Below, piece after piece: positions 26,697-30,421 of a stretch of DNA of 32,000 bases (position 1 is the stretch's first letter; every line of letters starts with the position of its first letter). The translations under genes and the position numbers were made by a program. Location: positions 120,001-152,000 of the forward strand of contig CAYHAA010000001.1 in assembly GCA_964354495.1 (NCBI GenBank), written 5' to 3'. The notes under the pieces were generated by a model. The model was not told the origin of the DNA. It worked only from the letters and a program-made list of their open reading frames with translations, and did not search any database. Origin of the DNA: an uncultured archaeon. GTDB lineage: Archaea > Asgardarchaeota > Thorarchaeia > Thorarchaeales > Thorarchaeaceae.

Positions 26697-26841
26697 TATA
26701 CCTAGGCCCCTAAGGCGCTGTATATACCTGGATATTACGGTTGCGAATCGACTAGTGACAAGGTTTTAATACGTGACTACCGGAACCGTACATGCTCTGG
26801 CTTTATGCGGAACAAGCCCCAGGGACTGGGAGACAAGCGAA

Positions 26842-27981
26842 ATGCCCGTAGCGGTGCTGCTTATAGATTGGGACTCAAAGATAGGAGCAGTTCTGAAGGC
26901 GAAGGTACCTGCAGATTTTGCTGACTACTACCGTGAAGATCTTAATACAGAAATCATGCGTATCTTCACGTCTCACGCCATGGGTGATGCCACAGCCGGG
27001 TTTTCATCACTCAGTATTCGTATCGGCGGTGAGGAGTATGGTGTTGCATCGTATTATACTGGAGTAGTAAGAGAGGAAGAGCAATACTGTATTTCCCTCT
27101 TGCTGACGCCCTCAGAAGATCCGAAGATGTATGAGGCTGCTATCACATCAATTGTGACTCCTCTGACAAATGCTGTGGTTGCATTGACTGATGCCGAGCT
27201 TCAGGATGAGCTGGATAATACATACCGACGTATCATCAGACTCGCTGGGATGACTGATGAGTCTCGTCTGGCACGATTATTCTCTGACGAGGTTTCTCGG
27301 GCTGTATTTCCCAAGCTCTGGAAAGGTGGTATCTCAAAGGAAGAGCTTGAAGAATGGTTGAAGATGGTCACAGGTCTTCCGAGTGTCAGTATTGACTCCA
27401 TCATCGCCCCCTTTGAAGAACTTGGCCTCGTAAAGATGGAATGGGTCGATGAGATTGGTCGAACGTGTGTCTTCATGATAAAGGATCTCGAGATCTTCAG
27501 AGCCCCGCCGCTTGTGTCGATGGAGGCCGCTAGTGGAGTTCTGGATCCTGAGCTTGCTGCGGAGTATAAGTCAGAGGTACTGGAATTCCTGACGGAGTGG
27601 CAGAAGACTCCTGAGGACACAGTATCAGTCGCTCAAGTCTTGGCAGATCCTGACTGTTATGATACGCTCAGCGAACTCAGAAGACGCCCTGCTAACATAT
27701 CTGAACTGGAGGCTACACTGGGCATCCCTCCGAAGGAGCTCAAAGAAGCAATCCAAACGCTCAAGAAGTTCAGGGTGGTCGCAGAGAAACGCAGAAAGGG
27801 TGCCTCAGGCGAATATGACAAATGGCTATTCCTGCTCAATGACATTCGTGTGAGACTATTCTTCCCTGAGTATTTCTTGCAGACATTGGTGACAGATCTC
27901 GAAAAGACTCCTGATGATCCGAAGGCAATGGAGATGGTCCATCAACACCTCCGTCTTCTGCGAGACAACTTCCCTCGCTGA
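26842..27981 (+). CDS. Longin/uDENN (NPRL2-like) domain protein with C-terminal winged helices
   Basis: Start re-called to ATG 26842. N-terminus VAVLLIDWDSKIGAVLKAKVPADF fits the uDENN/longin start; two wHTH-like segments (ISKEELEEWL...FEELGLV; NISELEATLGIPPKELKEAIQTLKKFRVV). Confidence 0.65.
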   Translation: MPVAVLLIDWDSKIGAVLKAKVPADFADYYREDLNTEIMRIFTSHAMGDATAGFSSLSIRIGGEEYGVASYYTGVVREEEQYCISLLLTPSEDPKMYEAAITSIVTPLTNAVVALTDAELQDELDNTYRRIIRLAGMTDESRLARLFSDEVSRAVFPKLWKGGISKEELEEWLKMVTGLPSVSIDSIIAPFEELGLVKMEWVDEIGRTCVFMIKDLEIFRAPPLVSMEAASGVLDPELAAEYKSEVLEFLTEWQKTPEDTVSVAQVLADPDCYDTLSELRRRPANISELEATLGIPPKELKEAIQTLKKFRVVAEKRRKGASGEYDKWLFLLNDIRVRLFFPEYFLQTLVTDLEKTPDDPKAMEMVHQHLRLLRDNFPR

Positions 27982-28137
27982 TTGATAATCATCATACCAC
28001 GTATCATATGATTGTGCCTTTTTTTCTCATGAATGTTACAGAAAAAGACCTATCACACCTCGATTCAACAAAATGACAACGACTATCTTTTTTTGGTGAA
28101 CCAGAAAGCTTCTTATGGCGATTCGAGGTCTGTTCCA

Positions 28138-28319
28138 GTGTGAACTTCAAACGGGTGGCGGTCTTCCCCCGTCAGGAACTCGCAATACACGGTCCTACGA
28201 GTTCTAGTCCCTAATTGCAGTTGCGACTGCACTGTTCTTGCGCATAAACGAATTTTACCGCCCCCGGTTGAAGAACACGCTCCAACGGATGTTCGGGGTT
28301 CTCTGAACCCCCAACATCT
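28138..28319 (+). ncRNA. Unassigned structured intergenic element (candidate ncRNA or cis-regulatory RNA)
   Basis: 20-bp interrupted outer stem (28138-28162 with 28257-28278), internal hairpins at 28176-28204 and 28216-28231, and a 13-bp hairpin at 28288-28318. GC-rich island within AT-rich flanks. No match to RNA families I can recognise; strand tentative. Confidence 0.45.
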
Positions 28320-28430
28320 AACCTTGTTGTTTTACATGTGACAGTTATACACACACAAAACAAGTTAATCAAGACAATACTACCTTACATCATGTTACGT
28401 GAGCTTCCCTAGCATACTGCACGAACCACT

Positions 28431-30356
28431 ATGTTCACTGGTGAGGTAGCCTTGATTCACAACACCTTCCTCATACGACTCTCGACAAGAGAAGTACTTG
28501 CATCAACTAGGTATTGGCCCGTAAAGGTGTCGCAAGAAACTCTTGAAGAGTATATCAAAACAAGGGACGACCTGCTCTCCGAAGGGAGCGACGATACTGA
28601 TCTCAACAATCTAGCACTCATTATTGGTGAGCACAAATTCCATGGAGCAGAGCCGGTTTCAGATATACTCCTTCTATATGTCACAGATAAAGGCGAGAAT
28701 GAAAGTGCCATATTCAACAAGGTCGAAGCAGCCTCGAAGGCATTGAGGAAGGACCTCGCAAAGTCTGGCTTCGAATCAGTTCGCGAAAGGTATGCGAAGA
28801 TTGTCGAACCATCAGTGACTACTCGACTCAAGATTGCTCTTGTGGGTGAAGGTGGTGTAGGAAAGACTACGACACTCCATCTCCTGCTCGGTGACACACC
28901 CCCACTGCAGTATGTGCCGACCATTGCACTCAATCTCGAAACAGTTGAGAACATCAGATTCGGGAACTACAGCCTTGTCCTCTGGGATTTTGCAGGACAG
29001 GAACGTTTTCGAATGCTGTGGCGTTTCTATTTCCACGGAGCGGATGTGATATTCCTAGTCTGTGACTCTGCCCTGCGAAACGTCATAATCAGCAAGGACA
29101 TTCTCAAGCTCATCAAACGAGATGCTCCCAAGGTCCCTGTCTTTGCTCTGGCCAACAAACAAGACAAGCCAAATGCCATGAGGCCGGAGGTCGTGCAGAA
29201 GATACTTGGAATTCCAACCTACCCAATGGTCGCAATCGACAAGGCTAGACGCGACGAGATGCTCAGAATACTAATGACTGCTGCAGCTCAATATGTTGGA
29301 GTAGCACTGCCTGACCTTCCTGCATCAGATCTGCTGAAGTTTACGAATACAGCGACTGAAGAGGCAATCGCAGAAACCGATGCAATGGCTGAGAGGCGTG
29401 AGGCCGCAGAACTCAAGGAAGCCCGCAAAGAGGGTGAGTATGAAGCCATCGAGGTCGTTGAGGAGGTCTTAGTAGATGAGAGCGGTCATGTTGTCGAGAA
29501 TCCCGAGGATTATGAGGTCGTGGAGGAAGTCATCGAAGAGGTTGACGAAGGAGCCATTGATGAAGCAGAAGAGGAAGGGATCGCCGCATCGAATCAATCT
29601 GATGAGGCTTTGACTGCAGAGCCGAAAGAAGCGGAGGATGAAGTGGACATCTCCATCTCTGAACCGGGAGAAGCATTGGAACCACAAGCTCTTGATGTGG
29701 ATTTCTCAGATGAGCAATTGATTCATCGTGAGTTTGAACTCATAGAAAACCAAGCACTGAGTGATACAACGGAACCCATTGAAACTCCTGATGATACACT
29801 TGTTCAGAATGAATCTGAGCTGACCGGAGAAAAAGTACCCGAACCCATCCCCCTAGAGGAATTAGAGCGCTATGCGGAGCCCTCTGAAGCTTCCCCTGAA
29901 ATCGAAGAAGTGACGCCCTCACCAGCAATTGACACTCTTAAGGAAATAGAGCCAGCAGAAGATGTGCCTGTGATTGAGCCCGTCATCGAAGAAGACAATG
30001 GGGATGTCAAATTAGCCAAGGATATCATCTTCGAGGCACTCGGGGGCGATGATTTCATCTCTGCAGAGATTGATCTTGTTCCGCATACTGAGATTGATAA
30101 GGCGCTTGAGGCCTTCAAGAGCGATGAAGCCGTTTCCACCCGAGGCGAGTCGGAAACCCGTTTCGAGATTGATGAAGACTCTCTCAGGGAGCTTGAGTCG
30201 ATTCTTGGTCCTCTGGATCTCACTGCGGGCGGAGTCAAGTCTGAAGGCACTAGCGATGATGGCGAGAAAAAGAAGGATTTGCCTATCGATGACGAAACGC
30301 TCGACGAGCTAGATCGTCTGTTAGATTCTGTTGACTCAGGCGAAGATAAGAAATAG
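28431..30356 (+). CDS. Longin/roadblock-small GTPase (Arf-like) fusion with long acidic disordered tail
   Basis: N-terminal longin-like region. G1 GEGGVGKT, G2 YVPTI, G3 WDFAGQ, Arf-like RFRMLWRFYF, G4 NKQD, atypical G5. About 330 aa Glu/Asp-rich C-terminus. Confidence 0.88.
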   Translation: MFTGEVALIHNTFLIRLSTREVLASTRYWPVKVSQETLEEYIKTRDDLLSEGSDDTDLNNLALIIGEHKFHGAEPVSDILLLYVTDKGENESAIFNKVEAASKALRKDLAKSGFESVRERYAKIVEPSVTTRLKIALVGEGGVGKTTTLHLLLGDTPPLQYVPTIALNLETVENIRFGNYSLVLWDFAGQERFRMLWRFYFHGADVIFLVCDSALRNVIISKDILKLIKRDAPKVPVFALANKQDKPNAMRPEVVQKILGIPTYPMVAIDKARRDEMLRILMTAAAQYVGVALPDLPASDLLKFTNTATEEAIAETDAMAERREAAELKEARKEGEYEAIEVVEEVLVDESGHVVENPEDYEVVEEVIEEVDEGAIDEAEEEGIAASNQSDEALTAEPKEAEDEVDISISEPGEALEPQALDVDFSDEQLIHREFELIENQALSDTTEPIETPDDTLVQNESELTGEKVPEPIPLEELERYAEPSEASPEIEEVTPSPAIDTLKEIEPAEDVPVIEPVIEEDNGDVKLAKDIIFEALGGDDFISAEIDLVPHTEIDKALEAFKSDEAVSTRGESETRFEIDEDSLRELESILGPLDLTAGGVKSEGTSDDGEKKKDLPIDDETLDELDRLLDSVDSGEDKK

Positions 30357-30421
30357 CCATACCTGTTGTCTTGGCGATAGACTGATTTAGAGGTTTGAGC
30401 TAGCCAATAGTGTGAGTTCTC

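Follow-up and report, generated by a model that had tools for sequence, protein, structure and literature searches.

A family of conserved, structured RNA genes predicted downstream of an NPRL2/FLCN-like gene in Thorarchaeaceae

This report concerns a gap of 449 bp (27982-28430) in a stretch of 32,000 nucleotides from an uncultured archaeon of the family Thorarchaeaceae (class Thorarchaeia, Asgardarchaeota; assembly GCA_964354495.1, contig CAYHAA010000001.1, positions 120,001 to 152,000), hereafter called the window, whose first letter is position 1 of all coordinates given below. The gap, which the original prediction had put at about 450 bp, separates two plus-strand open reading frames (ORFs; 26773-27981 and 28431-30356) and, as judged from comparative sequence analysis, it carries a member of a new family of structured RNA genes, which are present in single copy, occur within one family of Thorarchaeia among the genomes searched, and are fixed downstream of a gene for a protein resembling NPRL2. 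The reading to which we lean, tentatively and at somewhat less than even strength, is that of a free-standing gene for a stable folded RNA of ~195 nt, which acts in trans via its conserved unpaired parts and has the leader of the upstream gene as its best-supported partner. In this proposal the fold, its conservation, the single copy, the synteny and a place other than that of a 5' leader are what the comparisons reveal directly; the start and the end of transcription, the action in trans and the target are what we infer from it.

A fold that is conserved across genera

All the stems listed in the original prediction were found at the coordinates given there. The outer stem joins 28138-62 to 28257-78 by 20 Watson-Crick pairs, arranged in blocks of 4, 6, 4 and 6, and encloses two hairpins, namely GGAACTCG/CGAGTTCT (28175-82 with 28198-205; 8 bp, one of them a G-U pair) and TGCAGT/ACTGCA at 28216-31 (28216-21 with 28226-31; 6 bp). 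These are followed by a 3' terminal hairpin of 14 bp at 28287-28319, with a T-rich tract behind it at 28324-34. The minimum free energy (MFE) fold of 28130-28325 has the same architecture, and its energy on the plus strand is -71.6 kcal/mol, compared with -49.9 ± 4.4 kcal/mol for 200 dinucleotide shuffles (z -4.95), none of which was as stable. The minus strand of the region folds well too (z -5.97), as sets of hairpins do, and for this reason the strand cannot be assigned by energy alone.

Homologues were detected by BLASTN in 20 of the 27 genomes of the same genus, and all of them sit between orthologues of the same two flanking genes. When folded one by one, 19 orthologues and 13 genus representatives take up this architecture with different stem sequences; the outer stem, for instance, has GGCGGU/ACCGCC here and GCAUGG/CCAUGC in another group. 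A first covariance model, built from nine close sequences with the described stems, was used for aligning 21 sequences of the genus, and in this alignment 95.2% of the pair cells hold standard pairs and 33 of the 47 pairs have changed on both sides. No shuffle attains these values, and the control in which the pairs were slid by 1-3 columns leaves 39-47% of the cells paired.

A second covariance model has exactly one full-length match in each of 68 out of 85 other genomes of the family, with 11 of the 17 genera of the class represented, and no match among the 118 searched genomes of other Asgard families. With the filters off, weaker copies appear directly 3' of the same upstream gene in genome G031 (genus g5) and in g2 and g31, and the most diverged copy, that of g36, was found by eye at the locus, with the hairpin designated P2 replaced by AAACCUGU/ACAGGUUU. 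Inspection of the locus in G037, which alone represents the sister family, did not reveal the RNA. In metagenomes, none of the 80 loci listed for the loose pattern CCCCGTC..CTCGCA..GGTCCC fits the covariance model, and all are chance matches. In the relatives it is 190-250 nt long and lies invariably downstream of the same gene, which encodes a longin/winged-helix protein.

When 28 sequences from 11 genera are aligned, 93.4% of the cells are paired, against 36-45% for slid pairs; all helices are supported by covariation, with 42 of the 47 pairs doubly substituted, and none of 500 shuffles equals this, a count that comes from model-fitted alignments of related genomes and is not a probability. 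The covariation signal is regarded as real because the slid controls and the independent single-sequence folds agree. Plain MAFFT with RNAalifold, run on 19 sequences, recovered just P2 and a few pairs, the variable stems being misaligned, and the model-based alignments were used instead. The novel noncoding RNA (ncRNA) that the original prediction had offered as one possibility is thus conserved in relatives, where four helices covary with strong compensatory changes, and it has no Rfam family and a putative promoter of its own.

Organization of the predicted gene

The assignment of a strand, and of ends, depends on what flanks the fold. Upstream of the RNA, the motif (C/T)AGAAAG(C/G)TTC(A/T)TATG is kept in most of the genera examined, within variable surroundings; among the printed representatives, three show just its TTCATA(T/A)G half and two have no visible box. 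This motif is similar to the GAAA-nC-TTTAWA boxes located 25-35 nt ahead of tRNA genes in the same genome, where the class of its 15-mer occurs once. Transcription would begin ~22-27 nt past the box, which ends at 28117, and therefore at 28138-28142, where the first base of P1 lies. The plus strand is assigned because of this putative promoter, of the U-tract at the 3' side, and of the many G-U pairs, which would be A-C on the other strand, and the RNA would have its ends near 28138 and 28333. The U-rich tract after P4 is likely an archaeal terminator; together with the conserved linker and P4 it would terminate the transcript. In the fold, the 5' end and the downstream segment make up the 20-bp closing helix P1, inside which lies a three-way junction with P2 and P3, connected by nearly invariant junction strands. 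The parts of the gene and its neighbours are collected in Table 1, where P designates helices or hairpins and J the strands that join them.

Table 1. Features of the predicted RNA gene and of its surroundings, in window coordinates
Feature	Positions	Strand	Remarks
Upstream neighbour: 379 amino acids (aa), longin plus tandem winged-helix, NPRL2/FLCN-like	26842-27981	+	AlphaFold2 predicted local distance difference test (pLDDT) 93.3
GGGACUGGGAGA, candidate pairing site for the RNA loops	26822-26833	+	in the leader of the NPRL2-like gene; hypothesis
Putative promoter AGAAAGCTTCTTATG, of B-recognition element (BRE)/TATA type	28103-28117	+	conserved box upstream of the RNA
Predicted ncRNA gene	28138-28333	+	~195 nt; covariance-model matches full length (model positions 1-192); 205 bits in own genome
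P1 5' arm	28138-28162	+	pairs with 28257-28278; all 19 P1 pairs doubly substituted across genera (helices 1-3)
J1/2 CUUCCCCCGUCA	28163-28174	+	unpaired, nearly invariant; alignment columns invariant
P2 hairpin GGAACUCG/CGAGUUCU	28175-28205	+	helix 4, 96% paired
P2 loop, motif 1 CACGGUCCUA (CACGGUCCCA in relatives)	28183-28197	+	conserved (C/U)GGUCCC
J2/3 AGUCCCUAAU, motif 2	28206-28215	+	CUAGUCCCU here, CAUUGGUCCCC in most other genera
P3 hairpin UGCAGU-UGCG-ACUGCA	28216-28231	+	sequence variable; 6/6 pairs doubly substituted, 99% of cells paired (helix 5)
J3/1	28232-28256	+	holds conserved UCUUGCGCAU and AAUUUU
P1 3' arm	28257-28278	+	stem partner of 28138-28162, covarying
Linker GCUCCAAC	28279-28286	+	with the start of P4, conserved block GCUCCA-CGGAUG
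P4, 3' terminal hairpin	28287-28319	+	11/14 pairs doubly substituted (helices 6-7)
AAC and U-rich tract (UUGUUGUUUU)	28320-28334	+	U-runs behind P4 in many relatives, e.g. CCAACAUUUUU
Downstream neighbour: Arf-like small GTPase with long acidic tail	28431-30356	+	Pfam Arf 4.8e-21

The sequences of the helices vary, whereas the unpaired strands (J1/2, the P2 loop, J2/3, J3/1 and the linker) are nearly invariant: the CCCCGUC of J1/2 is retained in almost all genera examined, and CUUGCGCAU and AUUUU in J3/1 hardly change between genera. P4 has an internal loop of 2x1 nt and is extended in several genera. A further contact, a possible pseudoknot, is predicted by RNAalifold, in which ACGG (28285-88) could pair with CCGU (28169-72); both of its sides are invariant, and g9 has CCGG. 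That UUGCGCAU pairs with AUGCG, in the 5' arm of P4, was considered and rejected, as no covariation accompanies the change of P4.

The periphery varies: several genera, and within the same genus two genomes, have a 5' hairpin, and the extras seen in some genera comprise an insert before P2, an insert in the P2 loop, a P3 that is longer or doubled, a linker hairpin and the extended P4. Two lineage-specific insertions were also observed within the genus itself, namely a duplicated 5' hairpin, GAAUCUUCAUGAAARUGAAGAUU, and an extra hairpin, CAUGUUUCGAAAGAAACAAG, between J1/2 and P2; the loci concerned are L018/L021 (genomes G008, G022) and L025/L028/L059/L060 (G021, G004, G019, G018).

The position of the element ahead of a GTPase gene had suggested a leader or attenuator of the GTPase-ssb-DNPH1-EamA operon, with two mutually exclusive folds. 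In its own genus the RNA does point the same way as the GTPase gene, at 112 nt ahead of it, and its 3' hairpin with the U-tract is attenuator-like. Three genera (g9, g10 and g5) have a different arrangement, in which an opposite-strand gene of 314-326 aa stands directly behind the RNA, its stop abutting the 3' end of the latter (L066 4534-5478, L067 3220-4164 and L070 3193-4173, all on the minus strand), and the GTPase gene begins ~1.1-2.4 kb farther along. With a convergent gene in this place, the RNA does not qualify as leader or riboswitch of the GTPase. Both alternative pairings (28151-55/28168-72 and 28233-39/28271-77) are present in this sequence as claimed, and the switch is what failed: in the 21-sequence alignment they have undergone no double substitution and are paired in 76.9% of cells, against a mean of 76.7% in shuffled controls. 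Within the genus, moreover, a conserved A/T-rich box and a block of the form ACACAC..CAAGTTAATC / GCTTAATCTA occur between the RNA and the GTPase start, at 28340-28400 and at orthologous positions, and these are probably the promoter and leader of the GTPase gene itself. That the element acts in cis on the Arf-like GTPase operon behind it, as 5' leader, attenuator or riboswitch, is therefore very improbable.

Known RNA classes do not account for it either. No Rfam 15 covariance model matches anywhere in the window at gathering thresholds, and at E<=10 the region 27950-28450 gives just two chance matches of 14.7 bits each, with no riboswitch, ribozyme or Y_RNA among them; ARAGORN calls no tRNA here, and no description of this RNA was found in the literature. 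The failure to recognize tRNA, 5S, signal recognition particle (SRP) RNA, RNase P RNA or riboswitches, reported when the element was first noticed, thus holds in searches with dedicated models. A diverged RNase P or SRP RNA finds no support, since the genome has an RNase P RNA (157.5 bits, C7) and an SRP RNA candidate (91.6 bits, slightly below the cut-off of 96.5 bits, C3) elsewhere. A Y RNA was likewise rejected, with no TROVE/Ro60 match in the genome and no Rfam Y_RNA match. For guide RNAs of the C/D or H/ACA type, inspection of the alignments reveals no conserved boxes, there is no Rfam match, and the ACA behind P4 is absent in the group of the same genus. Kink-turn (K-turn), tRNA-like, 5S-like and bulge-helix-bulge (BHB)/circularization readings were rejected by inspection.

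Two observations on the RNA genes of this genome were made along the way. The RNase P RNA has two matches (C7:28603-28942 and C7:31249-31574; 157.5 and 110 bits) on the same strand and 2.3 kb apart, identical over the first ~200 nt and divergent after, which partial duplication in tandem or an error of assembly may explain. ARAGORN finds 33 tRNAs and calls none for Thr, Val, Ile, Phe, Tyr, Trp or Asn; two of its calls have 'introns' of 1.9 kb and 0.5 kb and one is a tRNA-SeC (loci C5:88752-90682, C6:25944-26505 and C7:73844-73934), and many tRNA genes of the genome probably carry non-canonical introns.

The nearly invariant junction strands inside covarying helices resemble the aptamer cores of riboswitches, and together with the possible long-range CCGU/ACGG contact they could make the junction a pocket, in a ligand-sensing or catalytic RNA that works by itself, such as a trans-acting riboswitch type built as an aptamer-like three-way junction. 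We consider this unlikely: the relaxed Rfam search found no such class, no downstream gene is consistently placed for regulation, and no alternative fold is conserved.

Candidate partners of the unpaired loops

What the RNA may do is suggested by its unpaired C-rich loops, in which the motif (C/U)GGUCCC occurs 2-3 times per RNA and which we infer to be the working parts. In 11 of the 14 RNA-bearing genera, the upstream gene has (A/U)GGGAC(C/U)(N)GGAG at -22 to -9 before its ATG (leader GGGACCGGAG). This leader motif is the reverse complement of CGGUCCC / CYAGUCCCU, and its GGGACCG matches the CGGUCCC of the P2 loop. The leaders of g1 and g8 have GGGACU, and a loop AGUCCC is found in several g1 lineages (L035-L043, L055, L056) and as an extra loop in g8, while none of the genomes with a GGGACC leader has AGUCCC at that position. 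In L038 and L041 of g1 the match extends to nine perfect nucleotides (CCAGUCCCU with AGGGACUGG), a length equalled by 0.6% of shuffles in the case of L038. Within its own genome, GGGACY..GGAG before a plausible gene start occurs only at the NPRL2-like gene. In G037, from the sister family, the RNA is missing from the locus and the motif from the leader.

According to the mechanism that we propose, the RNA would act in trans chiefly by way of its C-rich loops, with two or three copies of (C/U)GGUCCC, and of CCCCGUC, and its partner would be the 5' leader of the mRNA for the NPRL2/FLCN-like longin, of the GTPase-activating protein (GAP) type, where GGGAC(C/U)G lies directly 5' of the Shine-Dalgarno sequence GGAG. 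Pairing at this site, if the mRNA starts upstream of GGGACC, would alter translation or stability of the NPRL2-like mRNA. As a reading of the sequences, pairing with the upstream leader is the best available hypothesis and no finding, and on balance we hold it to be rather doubtful.

Several points weigh against it. The pairing was noticed post hoc, from two leaders, and a rough estimate gives 2-5% chance for such a 7-mer coincidence. Duplex energies between leader and RNA, taken genome by genome, are not better than those of shuffled leaders (p 0.05-0.8), full-length duplexfold against gene-start regions of 120 nt (-60 to +60) was uninformative, GGGACY is not enriched in the leaders of the genome (-35..-5), and GGGACY..GGAG is no commoner genome-wide than control patterns. 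Three genomes of g1 have a GGGACA leader and mismatching loops, and g5, g32, g36 and one genome of g33 lack the GGGACC leader and retain the GGUCCC loops. Because the loops persist where the leader site is absent, the leader target is not the sole reason for their conservation. In its architecture, with invariable joints around a three-way junction and 20 bp in the closing stem, the RNA is more elaborate than most base-pairing small RNAs (sRNAs), and an RNA that binds a protein or ligand fits equally. At the level of DNA, the match between leader and loop could be read as shared operator sites. Finally, reads from four sequencing runs, compared with 26700-30400, place none over 27975-28435, a result with no bearing on expression, since the only metatranscriptome among them (X20), like the DNA runs, yielded just diverged relatives of the coding parts of 26700-30400.

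The same loops are open to a different interpretation, in which the RNA is the scaffold or ligand of a ribonucleoprotein (RNP), or sequesters a protein, the GGUCCC loops, the junction strands and AUUUU being protein sites and the complementarity to the leader a coincidence. A conserved core with variable peripheral hairpins (5', P2 loop, P3, linker and P4) is what RNP RNAs typically show, the loop motif, present in 2-3 copies, is conserved in genera without a GGGACC leader, and the 20-bp closing stem is unlike typical switching helices. Against these features, inspection finds no K-turn, C/D or H/ACA box, Rfam gives no match, the genome has no TROVE/Ro60 gene, and the conserved neighbour has the NPRL2/FLCN-type longin plus winged-helix fold, which is no known RNA binder. 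We regard an RNP role as possible, although less likely than action in trans by pairing of the kind set out above.

Much less room is left for an element that works as DNA. Operators for a transcription factor find some support: taken as DNA, the GGTCCC of the RNA gene is one and the same site as the GGGACC ahead of the upstream gene, turned round, the change to GGGACT/AGTCCC fits co-evolving operators as well, and the upstream protein has winged helices with weak profile matches to the ArsR type. These motifs, however, are located in loops of a conserved fold, and 42 of the 47 pairs keep their pairing and not their sequence, a signature specific to RNA. The original prediction had also raised a replication origin, by way of an origin recognition box (ORB); the end of a miniature inverted-repeat transposable element (MITE) or insertion sequence (IS) is another candidate at this level. 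Neither stands: bases 28132-37 of the supposed ORB vary in close relatives, its G-strings covary as stem partners of the RNA, and the neighbours are tmk, the longin/winged-helix gene and the GTPase gene, while the element is unique in its own genome (97.7% complete) and present in one copy per genome, with an inverted repeat that covaries as an RNA stem. A DNA-level identity of any of these kinds is accordingly given very little credence.

Genomic setting and comparison with known systems

Our preferred reading, a trans-acting RNA that pairs with the leader next door, draws attention to the genes on both sides. The upstream protein most likely starts at 26842, given that its homologues have 379 aa. 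It has no Pfam match, and the secondary-structure string of its AlphaFold2 model comprises an N-terminal alpha/beta domain of the longin type, helical linkers and two winged-helix-like modules; the best Foldseek matches are NPRL2/NPRL3 of GATOR1, the SEA complex, FLCN-FNIP and DENN. Of the two GTPase-module genes which the original prediction had seen at the flanks, the downstream one is confirmed as an Arf-like GTPase, and the upstream one is NPRL2/FLCN-like and itself no GTPase. According to PMC12290439, Asgard genomes code for longins of the GAP type alongside Arf-related GTPases and Rag GTPases, and an upstream protein with these features fits that published finding.

The upstream protein is 82-98% identical across the family, far above its neighbours: identities are 55-62% for the adjacent thymidylate kinase and, for the GTPase, mostly 68-89% over its G-domain half (residues ~4-304), with 56-60% in g9. 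Paralogues of it, 25-28% identical, are found in each genome, and some of its database homologues are located at the C-terminal end of giant proteins (1351-2548 aa; P0065, P0088, P0116, P0117). A direct repeat of 34 nt, 79% identical, links the late part of the NPRL2-like gene (27801-27834) with the end of the GTPase gene (30332-30365) and may reflect a shared C-terminal peptide motif. The Arf-like GTPase gene is syntenic with the RNA but not invariably adjacent to it.

This setting raises a broader idea, that a dedicated RNA, retained throughout Thorarchaeaceae between the NPRL2-like and the Arf-related GTPase genes, is integral to the Asgard GAP-GTPase module (longin GAPs of the GATOR1/folliculin type with GTPases of the Arf/Rag type) and controls the GAP-like protein via its leader or by joining an RNP; we put this forward as a speculative and rather unlikely extension. 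Asgard longin proteins of the GAP type are being actively investigated, together with Arf-related GTPases, as precursors of the eukaryotic machinery for membrane traffic and nutrient signalling (PMC12290439), and the RNA, which is present in single copy, with strong comparative support from at least 11 genera, occupies a fixed spot inside such a eukaryote-like longin-GAP/Arf-family GTPase module. If the idea were true, an RNA regulating or joining the longin-GAP/Arf module would be an unexpected extra component, and would add an RNA layer to a eukaryote-like small-GTPase signalling system. Even if the link with the neighbours is merely positional, a new RNA family has been defined that is usable for Rfam and for the annotation of Thorarchaeia.

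Among known systems, the closest in manner of action would be the base-pairing sRNAs with C-rich loops. RNAIII, RsaE and other Rsa RNAs of Staphylococcus aureus carry unpaired UCCC motifs of this type. The RNA described here resembles them as a predicted stand-alone gene with promoter and terminator, with several unpaired UCCC loops on stable stems and, as candidate pairing site, a G-rich segment of an mRNA at its ribosome-binding region. It differs from them in being archaeal and unrelated in sequence and fold, with a helix of 20 bp that closes a three-way junction, and in having the neighbouring gene as its sole candidate target, through a pairing that is predicted. Trans-acting sRNAs are known from archaea too, where they mask 5' UTRs (untranslated regions) or ribosome-binding sites, sRNA162 of Methanosarcina mazei being one example. 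The likeness to this type lies in an archaeal small RNA, independently transcribed (here by prediction), with a proposed contact at the 5' leader of an mRNA. There is no homology between the two, and the Thorarchaeia RNA is far more conserved in structure, having four covarying helices family-wide and a conserved core that exceeds the needs of a pairing seed.

In its architecture the RNA recalls the three-way-junction riboswitches for purines and thiamine pyrophosphate (TPP), which also have a closing P1, two hairpins and a nearly invariant junction between covarying stems. Unlike these, it matches nothing in Rfam, is not located in a 5' UTR in three genera, has a P1 of 20 bp, and has no conserved alternative fold. 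To our knowledge, very few Asgard ncRNAs beyond the universal ones have been described, and the remaining comparison is with orphan ncRNAs such as Hgc/SscA of methanogens and OLE/raiA of bacteria. While it matches none of them in sequence or structure, falls well short of OLE or raiA in size and occurs in one Asgard family, it is like them a lineage-restricted RNA of unassigned function that is conserved, covarying and stand-alone.

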